The translations under genes were made by a program, and so were the position numbers. Positions 923-10,881 of a stretch of 64,000 nucleotides of DNA are shown piece after piece. Below the pieces are notes generated by a model. The model did not search any database and had not been told where the DNA came from. It saw only the letters and a program-made list of their open reading frames with translations. The stretch's first letter is position 1. Every line of letters begins with the position of its first letter. The stretch comes from Enterobacter phage KKP_3711, in the sequence record PP579741.1, one strand, 5' to 3'.

Positions 923-1190
923 GATATTTCCTCTCACTCGTTAGTTGGTAGAGCTATTATGTGCCCTAGTAATGAGATAGGCGAGAAAAAAGAAAATGTT
1001 TTTTATTCCTTGCCTAACTAACTTTTTTATGGTAGACACCCGCGCCCGTCCTTAAAACGGGCTACGCTAGCACCTATCAAGTAATACTATAATAAAGGGT
1101 GTAGCGAGAAAACGGCGTAGAACGCGATTTAGGCCGCTTAAATTTAATTGCAGTTGTTACTTCTACCATTTTACCCTGTATATTTATACA

Positions 1191-1222
1191 GTAGGATAAC
1201 CTGTGGATAAGTCAGGGGATAA
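1191..1222. promoter_or_regulatory. cluster of three helically phased DnaA-box-like 9-mers
   Basis: GTAGGATAA, TGTGGATAA (perfect reverse complement of TTATCCACA) and AGGGGATAA at 11-12 bp spacing. Preceded by the CTGTATAtttATACAG palindrome at 1176-1191. Confidence 0.5.
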
Positions 1223-2058
1223 CGTCCCTAAATTGATCCTATAATGTCAAATCTTTTTGTGCTGTGAATAACTTTGTGTATAACCTAAATGATAGTGTTT
1301 ATCATCTAGCAAGGTAGTTCCGTTGTGTTATTATTTCTCTTTAATTTATGTGAATATTATATAATAAAAAATAGTAAGTTGGCTAATGAGTTTTTACCTA
1401 ATAATACCTAATGGTTACTAATAATTAGCTAACTATAGAATTTAATTTCCATGCGTGATCATCCCCACCAGCAAACGTAACGCCCGAAATGATTAGCCTG
1501 CTAATAGTCGCGCGGCGCAGTTATGATTAGCGTGCTAACTATAACGTCATGAAACTACTTAACCTGTTTTGGATTTGTCAACCATTATTTGCAGCATTTT
1601 ATGCTTTTTTGAAAAATCAAGCGGATAACTCATTAAATTTCATTTTTGCTTTTTGTATAAGTTACTAACAGGGTCTAAAACGCTCTGTAACGCGTTCTAA
1701 GCGATTCAGGCCAAAAGCTATGCCATTGCATAGGGTACATGCCGATCTCCTCACCACGAGCGAAATAGGTTTTGTCAATACCCTAGAAGCAAATAAAAAC
1801 AAATAAATTTCGTGACTTTTATTTATTTTCGTGTATCACGCGCCCGTTTCACTTATAAATAAGGCAGACTCCGCACGCCGTGACCCTAGCAGTTTTCTTT
1901 ACACTTCTTTACAAATATCCGCTTGCAAGGTTTAACGCTTTCCCCTAATATTTATCTCGTAGGACGGCAAGACGGAAACGAAAGGCAACCTACACCGCTC
2001 TTTAACAATTTGGCTTGCTCTTGTTTGCCCGTCTACTACCTAATAAGGAAAAGAGATT

Positions 2059-2178: not shown

Positions 2179-2295
2179 GTTTGACAAAGTTTTTTAACTA
2201 AGCTAACTTAATAACCAGACGGGCAAACAAAAGCAAGTCACCGCTCTTTAACAATTTGGAAATGGTAAAAGTATTCAGGCGTATTATCTACGTTT

Positions 2296-2324: not shown

Positions 2325-2381
2325 GATAATATGTTAATATTATCTACTTAACCCTAAACTTAAATTATGGAGATATATACC

Positions 2382-2789
2382 ATGACTACTACTAAATCCG
2401 CTAAAACTGTAAAATCTACTGCTTTTGCATGGGATGAAGAAAACACCGCTAAAGCGGGCGATCTTTATAACCAGATGGTAGAAGAAAGCGGGGTTGAATT
2501 TGCAAACGAGAATCTCAAAGTAATTGCGGAGAAACTCGGCGCTAAATCTGCGGCTGCTGTGCGTTCCAAACTGGTTAGCGCTAAAGTGTACCAGAAAGCC
2601 GATACGCCGCGTAAAGTTGGCGGCGGTAGCTCAATCCGTAAAATTCATTATGTGCGTGCTCTGGTTAAGGCCGCAGAAGCTAAAGGTCTGGAAGTTGAAG
2701 CCGATGCGCTGGATTCTCTGGAATCTTCTAAGATGTCAGCGCTTAAAATCCTTGCTGATATTGCCGGAGTTCAGGTTACAGGTGAATAA
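2382..2789 (+). CDS. pre-early hypothetical protein
   Basis: ORF 2367..2789. The second ATG at 2382 has GGAGA SD 8 nt upstream. No recognisable motifs. Confidence 0.45.
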   Translation: MTTTKSAKTVKSTAFAWDEENTAKAGDLYNQMVEESGVEFANENLKVIAEKLGAKSAAAVRSKLVSAKVYQKADTPRKVGGGSSIRKIHYVRALVKAAEAKGLEVEADALDSLESSKMSALKILADIAGVQVTGE

Positions 2790-2852
2790 CGGTTAATTAA
2801 TGATAGCCAGTGCTTTTATAGGCTGGCTATAGTGAATTAACCCAATAATATA

Positions 2853-3092
2853 ATGGAGTTTATTATGATTAATATTTTTACTGTTATTGCGATCATGTTC
2901 TTAGCGGCAGTATTCTATATTCTAGAATTTTGCCACGCTAAAGAAAGGAATACATGGTTTAACGCAAAAGGCAATTTAAGCAAGGAATATCGTTTCCATG
3001 ATATTTCGTCTAAGCGTTGTTTATGGTTAGGTCGCTTATTCCTTATTTCGGGTATAGCTCTAGCCGTAATTGAGCAAATAACATTTATATAA
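2853..3092 (+). CDS. small hydrophobic (membrane) pre-early protein
   Basis: ORF with a long hydrophobic N-terminal segment (INIFTVIAIMFLAAVFYIL). Start may be the ATG at 2865 (GGAG 6 nt upstream). Confidence 0.4.
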   Translation: MEFIMINIFTVIAIMFLAAVFYILEFCHAKERNTWFNAKGNLSKEYRFHDISSKRCLWLGRLFLISGIALAVIEQITFI

Positions 3093-3183
3093 TTGCAAAT
3101 TATAACGTTAAGAGTTTATTCGATCTTTTGACGTTATATTTGGCAATTATCGCCATTTACCCTGAATTATAGGAGTTTTTTAT

Positions 3184-4857
3184 ATGTCTCGTATTTCCGC
3201 CGAAAATATTGCTCTTATCGTTAAACGTGCTGCTGGTTTAAACTATTTCGGCAAACGTCTGGACGATAAGAAAAATGAAGTCGCTGAAAAAATCAGCATG
3301 GAAGTATTCAATACGGCTAGCCGTTCGGCAGAAGTAAAACAGGTTATTGAAGATAATAAACCTGTAAAAGCTGATAAGCCAAAAGCCGAAAGGGTAGCGA
3401 AAGAAGATACTCGTCCAGTGGCTGCTGGTGCTATGAATAGTGCCGTTGATAACTGGAAAGTTAAAACGGGCAAACGCTTTATTCTTACTAGCATTCAAAA
3501 CAATACTTTCCCTCATGCTAACTTTTTAGCATCACTGGAAAAGGCCGCCGAATATCTCGGTGCTGAATTGCTGGTTAGCAAATATCTGTATAATAAAAAC
3601 GGATTCCAGAATGGGGAAGGCGGGAAAGATATTAAATTCGATTCTGCTTTCGATAAATATATTATTGAGGAAAACGTATTCCTTAATAATCGTGAATCTG
3701 GTTTCGCTTTTATGGCTGAATTAAACATTCTGCCTACTGCCTCTTATCCGCTGTCAGGATTCGCGGAAACGGCTACTGCATATGATCTTAAAGGTCTGGT
3801 AGTGGGTCACGCTAAAATTACTGCTGAGAGCGTGGCGGCGTTGAAGGGTGAATCTGTGCGCCGTTTATATTCAACTGGTACGGCTACACTGAAAAACTAT
3901 ATTCAGCAAAAGGCCGGACAAAAAGCCGAAGCGCTTCATAATTACGGTGCGCTGTTAGTTGAATTTGACGATGAAGGAACTTTCTTTGTCCGTCAACTGG
4001 AAGCTATGGATGCTAGCGGCGAATTTTACGATTTGAATCTTCATTTCACTCCTAGCGGAGTTAATGAAGTTACAGGTCATGTCTTAGCGCTGCAATATGG
4101 TGATATCCACGCCGAAAAAATTGATGATGAATGTGCTAGCGCGTCATGGAATAGTGAAGATTCATTGCTTGATATTCTCAAGCCGAAATATCAACTAATC
4201 CATGACGTTCATGACTTCACCAGTCGAAATCATCATAATCGTCAGAGCGGCGTTTTCCTTGCTGAGCAATATGCGCAAGGCCGTGACAAAGTGCTAGACG
4301 ATTTGATTGATACAGGTCGCATCCTTGAGCAAATGGATCGCCCATTCAGCCAAACGGTGATTGTTGAATCTAACCACGATTTAGCGCTCGCTCGTTGGCT
4401 TAATGACCCTAAAGCGAACATCACCCAAGACCCTGCAAACGCTCACCTATTCCATACTCTTAACGCCGCTATTTATGGTGCTATTGCAGACCGTGATACT
4501 AGTTTTAACGTTCTGGATTATGCGCTACGTCAGGTTGCAGGTTGCGATTTTGCCGCCGTTTTCCTTTCAACGGATGAATCTTTTAAACTGGCTGGCATTG
4601 AATGCGGCTGTCACGGTCATAATGGCATTAACGGCAGTAAGGGAAGCCCTAAACAATTTGTTAAGTTGGGCAAGATGAACACAGGTCATACTCATACGCC
4701 TAGCATTTACGGCGGTGTATATACTGCTGGCGTGTCTGGTAGTCTGGATATGGGTTATAACATTGGTGCATCTAGCTGGAGTCAGACGCATATCATTACC
4801 TATGCAAACGGTCAGCGTACTTTGATTGATTTTAAAAACGGTAAATTTTTCGCTTAA
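3184..4857 (+). CDS. A1: A1-like pre-early protein, calcineurin-like metallophosphoesterase (host DNA degradation / second-step transfer)
   Basis: 557 aa (T5 A1 is about 556 aa as I recall). Metallophosphatase motifs GDIHA (about nt 4099), GNHD-type ESNHD, and GCHGHNG. AGGAG SD. Confidence 0.75.
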   Translation: MSRISAENIALIVKRAAGLNYFGKRLDDKKNEVAEKISMEVFNTASRSAEVKQVIEDNKPVKADKPKAERVAKEDTRPVAAGAMNSAVDNWKVKTGKRFILTSIQNNTFPHANFLASLEKAAEYLGAELLVSKYLYNKNGFQNGEGGKDIKFDSAFDKYIIEENVFLNNRESGFAFMAELNILPTASYPLSGFAETATAYDLKGLVVGHAKITAESVAALKGESVRRLYSTGTATLKNYIQQKAGQKAEALHNYGALLVEFDDEGTFFVRQLEAMDASGEFYDLNLHFTPSGVNEVTGHVLALQYGDIHAEKIDDECASASWNSEDSLLDILKPKYQLIHDVHDFTSRNHHNRQSGVFLAEQYAQGRDKVLDDLIDTGRILEQMDRPFSQTVIVESNHDLALARWLNDPKANITQDPANAHLFHTLNAAIYGAIADRDTSFNVLDYALRQVAGCDFAAVFLSTDESFKLAGIECGCHGHNGINGSKGSPKQFVKLGKMNTGHTHTPSIYGGVYTAGVSGSLDMGYNIGASSWSQTHIITYANGQRTLIDFKNGKFFA

Positions 4858-4917
4858 TTAAAATCTAATAGCGGGAATTAATATTCCCGCTAACCCTAAA
4901 TAACTGGAGAATATTAA

Positions 4918-5322
4918 ATGAAATTAGTTTTCGTATACCGCAACGGAAAAACTTTTACCGCTCGTAACGTTGAAGATATTCATATTGTTACAGGTGGCGG
5001 GAATGTTACGGGTATTAATTATATTCGTAATCTTGATTTTGAAACATATCAGCAAACAGGTGATATGAAAAAGCTAGATAAAAATGCTGGCTTGTTAGTA
5101 CGCCGCAATGGTGATCAACGCTGGCAAGAGGCTAGCGAAGCCGTATCAATCCGAGTAGACAAAGCTCAATTGAGCTACGTCATTGTAGAGGAAAAGCTCG
5201 TCTATACGGATTTAGTAGGATTGTTTGGTGATGTTAGCAATCGCAATATGGTAAGCGTTATTCCTTGCCTTGATTCTTACACTGCTGAAAATATCGCAGA
5301 CGTTCTAAAAACCATTAGCTAA
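4918..5322 (+). CDS. A2: A2-like pre-early protein
   Basis: 134-aa ORF immediately downstream of A1 with GGAG SD. Position and size are as in T5. No motif seen. Confidence 0.5.
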   Translation: MKLVFVYRNGKTFTARNVEDIHIVTGGGNVTGINYIRNLDFETYQQTGDMKKLDKNAGLLVRRNGDQRWQEASEAVSIRVDKAQLSYVIVEEKLVYTDLVGLFGDVSNRNMVSVIPCLDSYTAENIADVLKTIS

Positions 5323-5389
5323 TATATTCTAGCGGCTTTATAGTATAGGCCGCTAGTCAATATATTAACCCTGTAAAGGAGAGCTATAA

Positions 5390-6088
5390 ATGCAACAAAT
5401 CACTAATATTAATCTGTGGGATTTAGATGGTACAGTAATCAATTCCGCGCACCGTGTTTTACCTCTGCTGGATAGTGATGGTAATTTAGATCTAAATCGC
5501 TATCGTAATGAGGCCTGCAAACATGAATTAATTATTCAAGATTCATTGTTGCCACTGGTTGAATTAATGCGCCGCCAGATGTCAGCGCCTAATACAATCA
5601 ACTATATTATCACCGCTCGCGCCATGTCCAAGTCTGATTATTATTTCCTGCGTAAACAGGGATTGAGAGGTCGCAACGGTGACAATATCCAAGTATTTAG
5701 CCGTGATACTATTCATAAGTTTGCGCCGTTGGAATCGGTGAAACATATTTACAACTCTCGTGACGCTGATTATAAAGCGTTTTATTTTGATCATATTATC
5801 CGCTTACATGGTCGTGATAACGTTAATTATACTATGTATGATGATCATAAGGGTGTGCTAGAAAAGGCGCGTGAATATGGATTCAACGCCATAGACGCCA
5901 CGCAATTAAACGAGATGTTAACAATCGGCATTCAGTTAGCAAGCGAACAATTTCTGGAGGAAACTATTTCCGATGATTTAGATATTGATTATTTAAATCA
6001 AAGGTTGTCGTTTGCATGGCAACAATTAACAGAAGAAGAACAGGATTATTATTCTGTTAAGTATCCTAAACTAGCTCAGGCAGTTTAA
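5390..6088 (+). CDS. dmp: 5'-deoxyribonucleotidase, HAD superfamily (dmp-like)
   Basis: N-terminal DLDGTV (the HAD DxDGT motif) and AAGGAGAG SD. Size and position match the T5 pre-early dmp. Confidence 0.7.
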   Translation: MQQITNINLWDLDGTVINSAHRVLPLLDSDGNLDLNRYRNEACKHELIIQDSLLPLVELMRRQMSAPNTINYIITARAMSKSDYYFLRKQGLRGRNGDNIQVFSRDTIHKFAPLESVKHIYNSRDADYKAFYFDHIIRLHGRDNVNYTMYDDHKGVLEKAREYGFNAIDATQLNEMLTIGIQLASEQFLEETISDDLDIDYLNQRLSFAWQQLTEEEQDYYSVKYPKLAQAV

Positions 6089-6096
6089 TATAAGTT

Positions 6097-6134
6097 AGCT
6101 AACCATTCCACTTCGAATGGTTAGCTTTTTAATT
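6097..6134 (+). terminator. rho-independent terminator closing the pre-early operon
   Basis: AGCTAACCATTC-cacttc-GAATGGTTAGCT followed by TTTTTAATT, 9 nt after the dmp stop. Confidence 0.75.
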
Positions 6135-6281
6135 ATAACCATGCGTGATCATTCCACTTCGAATAGTAACGCATGGTAACTATCACGGTGGGCGGTAATT
6201 AGACTGCTAACTATCCCCCACCACTGTGGACCCACCCACATGTGTAACTTTTGAAAAATGGAGCAAAAAGTGTTATTAGCT

Positions 6282-6356
6282 CATAGGAAAGTTACATATG
6301 CATAGGAAAGTTACATATGCATAGAAAAGTTACATATGCATAGAAAAGTTACCCAC
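6282..6356. repeat. 19-bp direct tandem repeat, about 3.8 copies (CATAGRAAAGTTACATATG)
   Basis: Copies at 6282-6300, 6301-6319 and 6320-6338, with a partial copy at 6339-6353. Each carries a CATATGCATAG palindromic core. Confidence 0.85.
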
Positions 6357-6469
6357 AATCTCACATATAATTGCACCAAATCTCCCACCCAAACCACCCA
6401 ACAGACCCACAAATTGCCACATTTAGCACGAAATTCAACGACTTATACAAGCAATCCAATTCCAACTCC

Positions 6470-6868
6470 TTATAAATATGTAATTACACGAGGTTCTGTT
6501 AAAGAGAAAGAAACTAATACTGCAATATCATCCTCTTTAATATCGTAATCATCACGGAATACTAAGCCACCATCTTCAATAACCATTTTCCATGATTGGC
6601 CTGTAAACCTTTCGAGTCTATTACGAAGAATACCCGCAGCCTCAGAATCTAAATTATGAATCTGATCATACATATCAGACAGACTAAATGGATCCGCCGG
6701 CTTGGTTTTCAAATATAAGTCTAGTAATTTCCAGCATCTGTGATTAATATCCAGACAACTAGAACTATTCCATACTAACCAGCGATAAAATAATTGTAAC
6801 ATTATAACCACCCTAGCATAAAGAGAATCATTACTACTACAAAAATTAAGAAGATTAAAGTTCCGCAT
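6470..6868 (-). CDS. hypothetical protein, divergent from the pb5 gene (positional analogue of llp, but no lipoprotein signal)
   Basis: 132-aa ORF. Frame checked upstream: stop with no alternative start. No lipobox or signal peptide seen. Confidence 0.3.
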   Translation of the reverse strand: MRNFNLLNFCSSNDSLYARVVIMLQLFYRWLVWNSSSCLDINHRCWKLLDLYLKTKPADPFSLSDMYDQIHNLDSEAAGILRNRLERFTGQSWKMVIEDGGLVFRDDYDIKEDDIAVLVSFSLTEPRVITYL

Positions 6869-7020
6869 CCAAAACTATTAATCCATGAATCGTATACTTC
6901 TCCGCGTCTCATTGGCAATACCTTTTGTGAAGTTTAAAAATTAGTTTTACATTTTCTTCTATTTATTTTATAATTATAATATATTTTAGGTAACTTAGCA
7001 AATAAAATTTAGGAGAGATT

Positions 7021-9069
7021 ATGAGCTTTTTTGCAGGAAGAATTGGTACAAAAACAGTTCTATCCCTCAACAGTGCCAGTGGAGGCGATATAAATGTCCA
7101 TCTTAACCCTAATACCAATACTATTTTCCATAGTGATATGCCATATGTCATAATCCAAGAACAATATTCCGCTAATCTTGGCGCCGTAGGTTCTGACTAT
7201 TATGTGTGTGATATGCCAGCTGCGGTAGCAAACTATGTAAGTAACACTAGCAGAATATTGATTCCTATGTTAACTGTTAATTATGGTGGCGTGGAATATA
7301 ATACTATTCTAGGTGGCGGCTCTATGTCTCTAGGTAACTGTACTGCGGGAGGTACCGAACTAAACCTAGGTACGACAATGGCAACTGCTGAGTGCGGCGC
7401 TCAGCTACGTAATATTTGGGGTTTTTCAAACGACGTTGTTTGGGATACAGGTTACTATACTAAAAGTAGTAGTTTATCTGATGTATTAAGTATTGGTCAA
7501 GGTACTGGTAGAAGTATTGATATAATGAGTGCTAGTCTTTATTACGCTGCTACTTACAGTACAGGCGGAGGTGGTATAGGTATTCCTCCAATTCCAGATT
7601 TAGATCAGTCATACCTATATTTAGCTAGTGGTGCTATCTACAGTGGTAGAATTCCTTCCGTGGACCAAGATGGTAGACTTAGATGGGCTGATGAAGATAG
7701 ACAATATAATACAAAGATAGGTTCTGTTACTCGTACTATTGCTATTAATAGCCACTTCCAAACTCCAACAGGTAGAAGCTTAGGTCATTCTAAATTCTAT
7801 GTTCGCAGAGGTATTGCTGCTCTAGTAAAAGCTTGGCGTGTTAGGTATAACCAAGGAGCAGGTACAGGAGAAACTTTAGTACAAAGATACACTAATAGTT
7901 TTTATGCTCAGTCTGGTGATCGTATAGATGAAGTATGGCAGCGTACTAGTTTCCATTCTAATACCAGTACTGTTATCGCTCCAGATACTACAGGTACTTA
8001 TCTAAACGTAGATTATAAAGCTAGCCTGTATAATATGGTAACGCCTGTCAGAATGACTTGGTTTGTAACTAATGTTACATATAATGAGTCAGCAGGTACT
8101 TATTCTGCTAGTAATCCCTTTACTGTAAATAATGACATTAGATTGTCTCCTTCTGATTTTATTATTAAAGGTGTTAATTTAGGAACTACTGCATGGAGTT
8201 TCTTAATGCAACTTTCTGCTGGTGCCCTTTATAACGCTAATGGCCGTGTTGTGATGGGAGCTAATGGTAGTAGAAGTACTGCCAAGAATGGTAGTTCAGC
8301 AGCAGCTATTCCTATTCCTTACATGTCTGGGACTACCGAAAGATTTATAGGCGGAGATACTACGGATGGTTGGCAGTTACATAAATTAGCATTGTATCAA
8401 TTCAATAGAAATAGACAATGGAAAGTAGATACTAGATCTAATTCAATTAGTAATGCAGAAGGTGATGTATGGAGTCCCGGAGTTAATCCATTAAAAATAT
8501 TTGCTGGTAATAGTTCGGTGGTTAACGTAGGAGGTAATACATTAAACTCCAATACAGGGGAAGTATTATTGACTACCGTTAACTTAGGTATGAATACTAA
8601 TGTACGAGCAGGTTCGGTAATTTGTTCCGTTCAGCTAAGGGATGCCACAGTATTTACATCTGGGGGCTATGGGTCTTTTGTAATATGTTCTCCTAGACCA
8701 GGAAATCCAGAATCTTTGGGACTATCTGCTAGTACTTCTAGAATGAGGACTTCGGGAGGTATTGGTGCAGTACACCATCATTTGTTCTGTACACTTCCTG
8801 TTGGTAGATTTGTGCCTGTTTATGCTATAAGAACCGCTGGATATAACTTTGTGTTAACTCCGTCTTTCCAGCCGCTATGGTTTACCCCTAGTAATGTTCA
8901 AATGAGTAATAGAACTCTAGAATGTTCTTTCATAATTTATTTGAAAAATGAAGGTAATGGTAACGTAGGTATTTATTGTGGTACTGGTCGTAACGCAGAT
9001 GCCGCGGCTATGGGTAACTTCTCTTTCATTTTACCAAACTTACGTATTTCTGTACAGCGTCTCACTTAA
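7021..9069 (+). CDS. oad: receptor-binding tail protein pb5-like (oad)
   Basis: 682 aa. The N-terminus MSFFAG...GGD..H.NP...TIFHSDM and C-terminal ...QRLT resemble my recollection of T5 pb5. AGGAGAG SD. Confidence 0.7.
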   Translation: MSFFAGRIGTKTVLSLNSASGGDINVHLNPNTNTIFHSDMPYVIIQEQYSANLGAVGSDYYVCDMPAAVANYVSNTSRILIPMLTVNYGGVEYNTILGGGSMSLGNCTAGGTELNLGTTMATAECGAQLRNIWGFSNDVVWDTGYYTKSSSLSDVLSIGQGTGRSIDIMSASLYYAATYSTGGGGIGIPPIPDLDQSYLYLASGAIYSGRIPSVDQDGRLRWADEDRQYNTKIGSVTRTIAINSHFQTPTGRSLGHSKFYVRRGIAALVKAWRVRYNQGAGTGETLVQRYTNSFYAQSGDRIDEVWQRTSFHSNTSTVIAPDTTGTYLNVDYKASLYNMVTPVRMTWFVTNVTYNESAGTYSASNPFTVNNDIRLSPSDFIIKGVNLGTTAWSFLMQLSAGALYNANGRVVMGANGSRSTAKNGSSAAAIPIPYMSGTTERFIGGDTTDGWQLHKLALYQFNRNRQWKVDTRSNSISNAEGDVWSPGVNPLKIFAGNSSVVNVGGNTLNSNTGEVLLTTVNLGMNTNVRAGSVICSVQLRDATVFTSGGYGSFVICSPRPGNPESLGLSASTSRMRTSGGIGAVHHHLFCTLPVGRFVPVYAIRTAGYNFVLTPSFQPLWFTPSNVQMSNRTLECSFIIYLKNEGNGNVGIYCGTGRNADAAAMGNFSFILPNLRISVQRLT

Positions 9070-9079
9070 GGAGAAATTA

Positions 9080-9562
9080 ATGAGCACAGATGTATTAGTA
9101 CCAGAAGAAATGTCACCTGAAGGTATGCGTGTCGTTGAGGCCTACCTTGATTGTGGCTCTGATATCACCCAAGTAGGAGATTACTTGGGTATGCCTCAGG
9201 AAACGGTTATGGCAATCTATAATCGTCCTGAAGTTAAACATTATATTACCACTCTTTTTATGGAGAGTGGTTTCCGTAATCGAGATAAGTTCTTTGGGGT
9301 TATGGATGAAATTGTTAAGAAAAAGCTAGAAGATTTAGAAGAATCCGAATTAGGTTCTGATGCAGATATTCTTGAGATTATGAAAGTATACCATAAAATG
9401 AAGATGGATGAAATGGCTATGCAAATCAAACTACTAGAAGCTCAGACTAAGGTAAGAACACCAACTACTCAAACTAATATTCAGAATAACTTCAATCTTC
9501 CAGGGTCGGATGATGGCAACTATATGGCGCTTATGAATCGACTTTCAGGAGCTAGAAAGTAA
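9080..9562 (+). CDS. putative terminase small subunit / DNA-binding protein
   Basis: ATG at 9080 with AAGGAGA SD (in frame within listed ORF 8978..9562). Lies immediately upstream of, and is translationally coupled (ATGA overlap) to, the large terminase. Confidence 0.45.
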   Translation: MSTDVLVPEEMSPEGMRVVEAYLDCGSDITQVGDYLGMPQETVMAIYNRPEVKHYITTLFMESGFRNRDKFFGVMDEIVKKKLEDLEESELGSDADILEIMKVYHKMKMDEMAMQIKLLEAQTKVRTPTTQTNIQNNFNLPGSDDGNYMALMNRLSGARK

Positions 9563-10881
9563 TGAAGGTATCTCGTGATTATTTGAACTGTACAGAACTG
9601 CTACAGTTTCCCGTAGAGGATAGATTTTTTGCTCTTCAAGTAGAAAGTTTACTAGAAACTGAAGGTATTATACCTAATGGGCCTCAGATTGCTATTGTTA
9701 ATGCCATTAATGACCCTAGACATCGTTTCGTAACTGCTTGTGTGTCACGACGTGTTGGTAAATCATTCATCGCTTATACTCTAGGATTCTTAAAGCTGCT
9801 AGAGCCAAATGTTAAAGTTCTGGTAGTAGCTCCAAACTACTCTCTAGCAAACATTGGATGGACTCAGATTAAAGGTCTGGTTCGTAAATATGGGCTTGAG
9901 ACTATTAAAGAGAACGCCAAAGATAAGGAGCTAGAACTTTCTAATGGTTCTTTATTTAAACTGGCATCTGCCGGTCAAGCGGACTCCGCAGTTGGTCGTT
10001 CTTATGACTTTATCATATTTGACGAAGCAGCTATCTCTTCTAAAGGTGGAGATGCCTTCGAAATTCAGTTACGTCCTACACTAGATAAGCCTAACTCTAA
10101 GGCTCTGTTTATCTCTACTCCTCGTGGTGCTAACTGGTTTAAAGAGTTCTATGAGCGTGGATTCAGTCCAGATCCTATGTTGTCTAAGTGGGTATCTATC
10201 CATGGTACATATAAAGATAACCCTCGCGTATCTGAAGCCGATATTGAGGAAGCTAAGAAAACTGTTACTAATGCATACTTCCGTCAGGAATATGAGGCAG
10301 ACTTCTCAGTATTCGAAGGTCAGATCTTCGAAGAGTTCGATGCTAAGATTCATGTTAGAGACTTTAGCAGAGAGAAAGAATTCTTTGCTAGTAATGAATT
10401 TGAAAATATTCTTGGTATTGACGTAGGTTATCGTGACCCAACAGCAGTACTAACGGTGAAGTATCATTATGATGATGATATTTACTACGTTATGGAAGAA
10501 TATGAAGAGAAGGAAAAGACTACTAGTGAGCATGCTGCTTATATTCACACTGTTGAAGAGAAATACGAAATTGATCGTATCTTCGTAGATGCTGCTGCGG
10601 CGCAGTTCCGTAATGACTTAGCTTATGAGCATGATATTGCATCTGCACCTGCTAAGAAATCAGTGCTTGATGGTCTAGCACTTCTACAAACTCTATTCCA
10701 TCAGAACAAAATTATTGTTAGTACAGAATGTCCAAGACTTATACATGCTCTAGCAAACTATAAGTGGGACTTCGATGAGACTAGTGATAAGTTAGTGAAA
10801 GAGAAGCCATTACACGATGGTAACTCACACTTATGTGATGCTCTCCGCTATGCAATTTATTCTATCCAAAGGGGTAAATAA
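9562..10881 (+). CDS. terL: terminase large subunit
   Basis: 439 aa. Walker A (CVSRRVGKS), Walker B (IFDEAA) and a C-terminal nuclease-like region. Size matches T5 TerL. Confidence 0.85.
   Translation: MKVSRDYLNCTELLQFPVEDRFFALQVESLLETEGIIPNGPQIAIVNAINDPRHRFVTACVSRRVGKSFIAYTLGFLKLLEPNVKVLVVAPNYSLANIGWTQIKGLVRKYGLETIKENAKDKELELSNGSLFKLASAGQADSAVGRSYDFIIFDEAAISSKGGDAFEIQLRPTLDKPNSKALFISTPRGANWFKEFYERGFSPDPMLSKWVSIHGTYKDNPRVSEADIEEAKKTVTNAYFRQEYEADFSVFEGQIFEEFDAKIHVRDFSREKEFFASNEFENILGIDVGYRDPTAVLTVKYHYDDDIYYVMEEYEEKEKTTSEHAAYIHTVEEKYEIDRIFVDAAAAQFRNDLAYEHDIASAPAKKSVLDGLALLQTLFHQNKIIVSTECPRLIHALANYKWDFDETSDKLVKEKPLHDGNSHLCDALRYAIYSIQRGK

Follow-up and report, generated by a model that had tools for sequence, protein, structure and literature searches.

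The left terminal repeat of bacteriophage T5 contains three untranslated repeat regions (RRs), as described by Davison (2020, bioRxiv 10.1101/866236). RR2 (6022-6209) contains an IRC-spacer-IRD arrangement of inverted repeats, and RR3 (9194-10409) contains the inverted copy, IRD'-spacer-IRC', which is presumed to be the injection-stop signal (iss). Each copy comprises a 52-bp spacer and DnaA, or DnaA-like, boxes paired 3 bp apart. The presence of DnaA boxes is therefore already published, in that paper and in Heusterspreute et al. (1987), as cited by Davison. Here we analyse a 64-kb stretch (64,000 nucleotides) of Enterobacter phage KKP_3711 (PP579741.1), hereafter the window, which is drawn opposite in orientation to the T5 reference. 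A 131-bp module at 1176-1306 (+ strand), equivalent to a complete IRD-spacer-IRC unit, is identified as the reverse-complement orthologue of the T5 RR2 module and a paralogue of the copy in the injection-stop region. We favour, with a probability of roughly 0.7, the view that this module is an accessory platform on double-stranded DNA for the binding of the host factors DnaA and LexA, positioned in the leader of the operon headed by the homolog of pre-early gene 011.

Window 1176-1306 aligns without gaps to both T5 modules (AY587007), IRC-spacer-IRD at 6022-6152 and IRD'-spacer-IRC' at 9332-9462, with blastn identities of 72-75% and E values of 1e-21 and 7e-19. The length of 131 bp is that of the T5 module, and the internal layout, in the same columns and with no indels, is consistent with Davison's 52-bp spacer. 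In other relatives identity is 80-86% to RR2 copies and 72-78% to RR3 copies. An earlier reading of the DNA (the original prediction) had suggested that the site might be the DnaA-box and inverted-repeat signal for the injection stop, at the boundary of the terminal repeat with the early region, and had made the idea depend on conservation in related phages. That conservation is evident, since the 131-bp block is kept in every T5 relative examined, and the gap-free alignment to T5 9332-9462 places the module in the same repeat family. It is the central RR2 copy, however, and not the injection-stop copy, and the proposed boundary has to be abandoned. The loci of relatives that span both sites carry two inverted copies, ∼1.8-3.9 kb apart and mostly ∼3-3.9 kb, and blastn with the T5 repeat detected a single copy within the window.

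Assignment of the module as the orthologue of the central T5 copy (6022-6152) rests on collinearity, copy-specific flanks, neighbouring genes and distance from the genome terminus. The collinear blocks run from T5 6024-6210 to window 1304-1118, from 5964-6018 to 1396-1342 and from 5016-5096 to 1974-1895, followed by A2, A1 and dmp. The copies were compared in a 35-row alignment containing the window and 34 related copies (15 RR2-type and 19 RR3-type). The left flank (ACCWTTYTACC), the spacer and the tail are common to the window and the RR2 copies, and differ from those of RR3; the conserved tail at 1284-1304 (+) reads CCTAAATGATAGTGTTTATCA in the window, AAATGATAGTG in RR2-type copies and AAATAACAGTG in RR3-type copies. 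Within the spacer the motif TGTCAA (1245-1250, +) stands out, as its GTCAA core is invariant or nearly so in the alignment; inspection of the same 35 rows revealed no conserved −10 element to partner it. The module is bordered by the gene 011 homolog on the left and by A2, A1 and dmp on the right, and lies ∼4.9-5.1 kb from the inferred terminus. In phage SIY1lw the RR2 copy is ∼5.6-5.75 kb from the repeat end, and the RR3 copy is at ∼9.3-9.5 kb in both T5 and SIY1lw; the T5 stop point is at ∼9.6 kb. The module is thus not at the position of the injection-stop copy, which is ∼8% of the genome (∼9.3-9.6 kb) from the left terminus. Flanked by pre-early genes on both sides, ∼5 kb from the terminus, the module does not mark the junction of the terminal repeat with the early region; the injection-stop copy proper is expected to the left of window position 1. 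An equivalent of T5 inverted repeat B' (IRB') was located at 1115-1139, with a partner arm at 1678-1702 (25 nt, 72% complementary), and T5 IRB' (6184-6209) falls inside the aligned block that pairs T5 6024-6210 with window 1304-1118.

The module is headed by palindrome D, CTGTATA-TT-TATACAG (1176-1191), which, with the three 9-mers quoted in the original prediction (1191-1199, 1202-1210 and 1214-1222), is indeed present in the sequence. The surrounding 20-mer, CCCTGTATATTTATACAGTA (1174-1193), matches all of the conserved positions of the Escherichia coli LexA box, taCTGTatatatatACAGta, as quoted in PMC5101192. A provisional matrix built from 19 E. coli operators gave this site a score of 22.5 bits, compared with 12.8-23.5 bits for the known E. 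coli sites and 26.6 bits for the consensus. The maximum in each of 100 random 64-kb sequences averaged 13.7 bits, the largest being 21.5 bits. The T5 RR3 copy, TACTGTATAAATATACAGTA, which matches the consensus at 19/20 positions, scored 25.3 bits. Each of the T5-like terminal repeats scanned, from E. coli, Salmonella, Klebsiella and Pectobacterium phages, contains at least two sites of 21.2-25.3 bits, one heading each module; a locus cut at the end of its record shows one. The palindrome is almost invariant in the 34 related copies, CTG...CAG is retained in every variant, and the natural variants (CTGG..., ...CCAG) are ones found in genuine LexA operators.

The palindrome is also the most deeply conserved part of the module, extending to Tequintavirus, Epseptimavirus and Klebsiella, Pectobacterium, Proteus and Vibrio relatives, across the three subfamilies of the Demerecviridae and the genus Novosibvirus. 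The match between the Pectobacterium phage and the window is restricted to 1176-1213. Even at A1 identities of 42% (Proteus phage RP7) and 32% (Vibrio phage Quinn), a palindrome of 20-24 bits persists beside TTATCCACA boxes in the distal copy, and the central region of RP7 also has a lone 24-bit palindrome. Homologs of A1 outside the Demerecviridae (Agrobacterium phage Atu_ph02 and Shewanella phage 1/4), considered with a view to hosts whose LexA motif differs, are located in replication modules, with no T5-like first-step region. Only two LexA-like sites above 15 bits occur in the 64 kb, 471 bp apart. The second, TACTGTATACAAATACAGTA (703-722, 23.0 bits), is in the coding sequence of the gene 011 homolog, where it encodes TVFVYSN; no box of this type occurs in the T5, SIY1lw and IrmaTschudi homologs of the gene. 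In Pectobacterium phage DU_PP_V an extra LexA-like palindrome, ACCTGTATAGGCATACAGTA (2288-2307, 19.2 bits), is located in the spacer of the distal module. A LexA-repressed promoter overlapping the palindrome was considered, since promoter-like matches lead out of the palindrome in both T5 copies, but was not adopted: the overlapping T5 match is not conserved in the window, which has no acceptable −10 there. Davison's paper (10.1101/866236) never mentions LexA or SOS, and the literature searched, which did not extend to older work, provided no link between T5-like phages and LexA boxes. As far as we searched, the proposed identity of the palindrome as a LexA box, and the contrast in box variation between the copies described below, go beyond published work.

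The DnaA consensus, TGTGNAWAA on the + strand, corresponds to TTWTNCACA on the other strand. Box 1 (1202-1210, −), TTATCCACA or TGTGGATAA on the + strand, is a perfect box of the R1/R4 type, and box 2 (1214-1222, −; AGGGGATAA on the + strand), 3 bp away, is DnaA-like with 2 mismatches. A second pair, missed in the original prediction, comprises the consensus box 3 (1263-1271, −), TTATTCACA or TGTGAATAA on the + strand, and, 3 bp from it, the consensus R2-type box 4 (1275-1283, −), TTATACACA or TGTGTATAA on the + strand. All of these boxes share one orientation, and the pairs (1202-1222 and 1263-1283) have a 12-bp spacing within each. The 9-mer GTAGGATAA at 1191-1199 (+), designated box 0, has 3 mismatches to TGTGNAWAA and does not qualify as a consensus DnaA box; it is conserved, as GTAG[G/A]ATAA, in nearly all copies and overlaps the CAGTA flank of the LexA-like site. 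The phased DnaA cluster originally described, made up of GTAGGATAA, TGTGGATAA and AGGGGATAA, is therefore sound in its perfect box and in its spacing, as its members, all on one strand, begin at intervals of 11 and 12 bp, but two of them depart from the consensus. The window nevertheless has three same-strand consensus boxes within 82 bp, and none of 300 random 64-kb sequences (Markov-1, same dinucleotide make-up) contained three or more such boxes per 100 bp.

The variation among copies is consistent with recognition by DnaA in one class. A consensus box occupies the box-1 position in 12 of the 15 RR2-type and 8 of the 19 RR3-type copies, and the box-2 position in 15/15 RR2-type relatives; the T5 injection-stop copy has a variant, TGGGGATAA, similar to that of the window. 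When the four box positions of the RR2-type copies were compared with TGTGGATAA, changes were concentrated at position 5 (23/64) and position 7 (8/64), with the others at ≤5/64. Positions 5 and 7 coincide with N and W in the DnaA consensus, a pattern that selection for DnaA recognition would produce, although the counts come from related, non-independent sequences. A search of the literature uncovered no published DnaA-binding test of the T5-family module. A further DnaA-like 9-mer, TGTGAATAT (1349-1357), with 1 mismatch and the orientation of the others, overlaps the predicted −10/+1 region of the leftward promoter discussed below, and belongs to a 19-nt imperfect direct repeat with 1252-1270.

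Structures formed by a single strand were also considered. The GGGA-taacg-TCCC hairpin reported upstream of the palindrome is in fact downstream of it, at 1216-1228; its stem of only 4 bp is not conserved in relatives and is best treated as chance. A hairpin or cruciform reading of the module as a whole was also rejected, since single-strand folding of 1165-1310 was no better than shuffles (z = −1.45). A non-coding RNA was likewise discarded, Rfam returning one sub-threshold hit elsewhere in the region.

A sigma-70 promoter-like element of T5 type, TAGCCA-18-TATAAT followed by CATAAATT, was detected by a consensus scan at 1343-1385 (−). The CATAAATT motif is typical of strong T5 promoters. The same TAGCCA-18-TATAAT element, a putative promoter, is found at T5 5975-6004 (+) and is kept in 6/6 of the RR2 regions aligned; a candidate T5 PH207 promoter sequence had no match to the T5 repeat and was not used. 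The element points leftward into the module and on toward the gene 011 homolog. From a predicted start near 1349, boxes 4 to 1 would span roughly +67 to +148, with the palindrome at roughly +159 to +174, and the predicted leader would run on through the IRB' equivalent (1115-1139) to the gene 011 homolog.

These features suggest how the module might act. Injection of T5 DNA stops without phage protein synthesis (summarised in 10.1101/866236), so any trans-acting partner of the cis signal must pre-exist in the cell. The near-consensus sites, together with the established affinities of LexA and DnaA, lead us to infer that pre-existing host LexA and DnaA would occupy the module at once as the first-step-transfer DNA enters, and hence to the host-factor platform. 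On the window copy the complex would occupy a leader predicted to be transcribed, some 65-175 nt past the putative T5-type promoter, a position that suggests a roadblock or attenuator; it could dampen transcription of the gene 011 operon, the products of which are toxic in T5 (bioRxiv 10.64898/2026.04.02.716235). A further possibility is pairing between this module and its inverted RR3 counterpart in the classical injection-stop region, at the repeat's inner end. More tentatively, and we regard this extension as improbable rather than probable, the palindrome may be a genuine host-LexA operator, such that two pre-existing host proteins, LexA and DnaA, assemble on the first-step-transfer DNA without phage protein synthesis; the assembly would then either be the trans-acting partner of the cis-acting stop/anchor signal or act as a sink by which LexA and DnaA are titrated.

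The accessory status of the module is illustrated by a T5 deletion. The 'hegG to 017' deletion strain (delta-R) is viable and forms smaller plaques (bioRxiv 10.64898/2026.04.02.716235). The deletion primers map to AY587007 ∼5388 and ∼9082, and the deletion removed ∼5389-9081. T5 delta-R consequently lacks the whole RR2 module (6022-6152) and the promoter upstream of gene 011, and keeps RR3, indicating that the RR2 copy is non-essential in T5. The loss of the RR2 module attracts no comment in that preprint.

Several observations weigh against a host-factor platform in the gene 011 leader. The commonest change in RR3-type copies, G4→T (33/76), generates TGTTGATAA, which is outside the strict DnaA consensus, and a 2023 article (PMC10644984) states that functional or experimental studies of these sites are lacking. 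The LexA score depends on a provisional matrix, and the LexA-like site, ∼160 nt downstream of the predicted start, is in a non-classical position for an operator; it overlaps no promoter, the nearest conserved promoter-like element starting ∼160 nt away. In Klebsiella relatives the RR2 copy is truncated and the genes between the modules are oppositely oriented, so the leader-operator role cannot be universal. The partner copy and the repeat boundaries fall outside the window. Finally, some of the motifs could in reality be bound by A2, an essential phage DNA-binding protein with 43-45% identity across the family.

This last point underlies an alternative in which the reader of the motifs is phage-encoded (A2, alone or in complex with A1) and their resemblance to host sites is incidental or partial. 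A2 is present in all family members (phrog_1725), with 43-45% identity retained even in the Proteus and Vibrio phages, and the TGTTGATAA variant, the conserved GTAGGATAAC and TGTCAA are explained by neither DnaA nor LexA. The palindrome, however, fits the LexA consensus at every conserved position (19/20 in T5), the changes in RR2-type boxes fall at degenerate positions of the DnaA consensus, and sites so near consensus would bind the abundant host proteins anyway. The injection stop also takes place without phage protein synthesis (10.1101/866236), and we consider a phage-encoded reader unlikely. Less probable still is that the module constitutes the actual injection-stop signal, located where the inner end of the repeat meets the early region. 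Its homology to the T5 iss-region module (9332-9462) and Davison's argument that both copies may take part in iss (10.1101/866236) speak for it, but synteny, flank type and distance from the terminus are those of the central RR2 copy, blastn with the T5 repeat found no match in the window to the DRC, DRD and DRE repeats (T5 9463-10409), and T5 without the RR2 copy is viable.

Another explanation is that the inverted modules are mainly recombination substrates that bracket a swappable accessory pre-early cassette, with the motifs secondary. The modules do border the most variable part of the repeat, the intervening genes of Klebsiella relatives face the opposite way, and ORF011-015 are replaced in Types 2 and 3 according to Davison (10.1101/866236). 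Homologous recombination, however, requires neither motif-level conservation nor a fixed length of 131 bp, and has no need for LexA and DnaA consensus positions that are kept down to Vibrio phages, which makes such a primary role hard to credit. An oriC-like replication origin is very improbable, for although the DnaA-box cluster adjoins the stretch of lowest GC content (29.5% at 1201-1400), as an AT-rich unwinding region would demand, that stretch is accounted for by the conserved promoter-like element, T5 origins map near the genome centre with the replication genes arriving only with the second-step DNA (Davison, 10.1101/866236), and the T5 deletion covering the RR2 copy is viable.

The proposed host-factor platform is set in a genome whose pre-early organization resembles that of T5. 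Nucleotide searches with the window retrieved several hundred T5-like phages (Demerecviridae) at ∼75-86% identity and partial coverage, and the best database match for A1 is ∼75% identical; by these similarities the phage is a divergent T5 relative. The synteny anchors of the pre-early left arm (2367-6088, +) are the genes for an A2-type DNA-binding protein (2367-2789; phrog_1725), the A1 DNA-transfer protein (3184-4857; phrog_1745, E 7e-224) and a dmp-like phosphatase (5390-6088; phrog_415), each with a blastn match to its T5 counterpart. The gene 011 homolog (1-922, −) starts at 922 and is open at the left edge of the window (phrog_4263, E 4.5e-48). Its product matches T5 ORF011 (BLASTP E 1e-11) and SIY1lw_00008 (E 1e-29), the latter encoded inside an annotated 10.1-kb terminal repeat, and in relatives with annotated repeats the region matching the first part of the window falls within the long terminal repeat. 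The physical genome end is probably near 6231 (CACTGTGGAC|C), as placed by weak homology with the termini of T5 and SIY1lw; the T5 left end used was ...CAGTGGACA, and its window counterpart is at about 6180-6235. Tail and late genes lie beyond ∼6231, which indicates that the assembly collapsed the terminal repeat. The original view of a T5-like phage with a collapsed terminal repeat is thus borne out by homology and synteny.

The stretch described originally as ORF-free (930-2058) is so to the extent that the largest open reading frames in 923-2058 are ≤49 aa, and its description as repeat-rich is weakly supported by a repeat search inside the window. With the gene-011-like operon directed leftward and A2-A1-dmp directed rightward, this non-coding stretch is a divergent-promoter region in the middle of the repeat and not the repeat/early boundary. 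It is in this untranslated centre of the collapsed terminal repeat that the module is found, with one of the two divergent pre-early operons on either side.

Other repeats were observed in this region. An exact 21-nt repeat, CACCGCTCTTTAACAATTTGG, occurs at 1993-2013 and 2239-2259 (+), in the leaders upstream of a small ORF at 2059 and of A2, respectively. Its core, GCTCTTTAACAATTT, equals the E. coli rrn boxA antitermination site. The related sequence CGCTCTTTAA[AC]AAT recurs, directed toward adjacent pre-early genes, in T5 (4979, −), Klebsiella phage vB_Kpn2-P1 (2 copies), Proteus phage RP7 (5) and Vibrio phage Quinn (1). The boxA-like repeats suggest a possible NusB/S10-type antitermination of the pre-early operons; the literature searched contained no link between boxA and T5. 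The sequence CCATGCGTGATCAT(C/T)CCAC is present twice, at 1449-1467 in the central non-coding region and at 6139-6155, ∼80 nt in from the inferred genome end. The central non-coding region also has a direct repeat, ATGATTAGC(C/G)TGCTAA, at 1489-1504 and 1523-1538, the copies being 34 bp apart.

The module belongs to a known, published T5-family element whose function we infer from its motifs and setting. The main yield of the analysis is the correct annotation, orientation and layout of the collapsed terminal repeat in a divergent T5-like phage, with the caution that a central repeat module should not be taken for the repeat boundary or the injection-stop site. Beyond annotation, the most conserved non-coding element of the family joins a near-consensus LexA box with DnaA boxes, and box variation tracks the DnaA consensus in one copy and not the other. 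These features may bear on the pausing of DNA delivery by T5-type phages and on the control of their toxic pre-early genes, a mechanism still called poorly understood in 2026 (PMC13250531). If an assembly of LexA and DnaA does form, the 60-year-old question of the T5 injection pause would become open to direct tests, using hosts with lexA or dnaA alleles and phages with point-mutated palindromes.

Of the known systems the closest is T5 RR2 (AY587007 6022-6152; annotation of Wang et al. 2005), which has the same 131-bp layout, a palindrome, CTGTATATTTATACAG, identical between the window and the T5 RR2 copy, DnaA boxes paired 3 bp apart in a layout consistent with a 52-bp spacer, IRB' on one side, the TAGCCA-18-TATAAT element on the other, and a site between gene 011 and the A2 side. 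The window module differs in being only ∼72-75% identical, in the absence of the HNH (hegG) insertion by which RR1 and RR2 are separated in T5, and in its boxes, as box 2 is degenerate (AGGGGATAA) and boxes 3 and 4 are consensus, whereas the T5 RR2 copy has lost one box. T5 RR3 (9332-9462), the classical iss of Heusterspreute et al. (1987) as cited by Davison, is paralogous and has the same palindrome and box arrangement. It has, however, the opposite orientation and a position at ∼9.3-9.5 kb, immediately preceding the stop point and the 7.9% nick, with DRC/DRD/DRE beyond it; its flanks are GCGTAGGAATA... and ...AAATAACAGTG and its boxes are mostly TGTTGATAA, none of these RR3 features being found in the window copy.

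The module resembles the E. coli DnaA-box arrays (oriC, datA and DARS) in that a strong consensus box has weaker neighbours in the same orientation at about one helical turn. In oriC arrays a high-affinity box is likewise accompanied by weaker boxes, with a spacing of 2 bp, compared with the 3 bp within the window pairs. The window array also differs from the E. coli arrays in its location on a virulent phage that encodes its own replication proteins. With the LexA operators of the SOS response (taCTGTatatatatACAGta, PMC5101192) the palindrome shares CTGT-N8-ACAG, an AT-only centre and a score at the top of the range of genuine operators, and there are phage and plasmid elements that use host LexA, such as GIL01 (PMC4551915). 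In contrast to SOS operators, the window palindrome overlaps no recognisable −35/−10, and it is distinguished from both these and GIL01-type elements by its presence in a virulent phage without a lysogeny switch, by the DnaA boxes alongside and by the occurrence, in relatives, of two inverted copies per terminal repeat.

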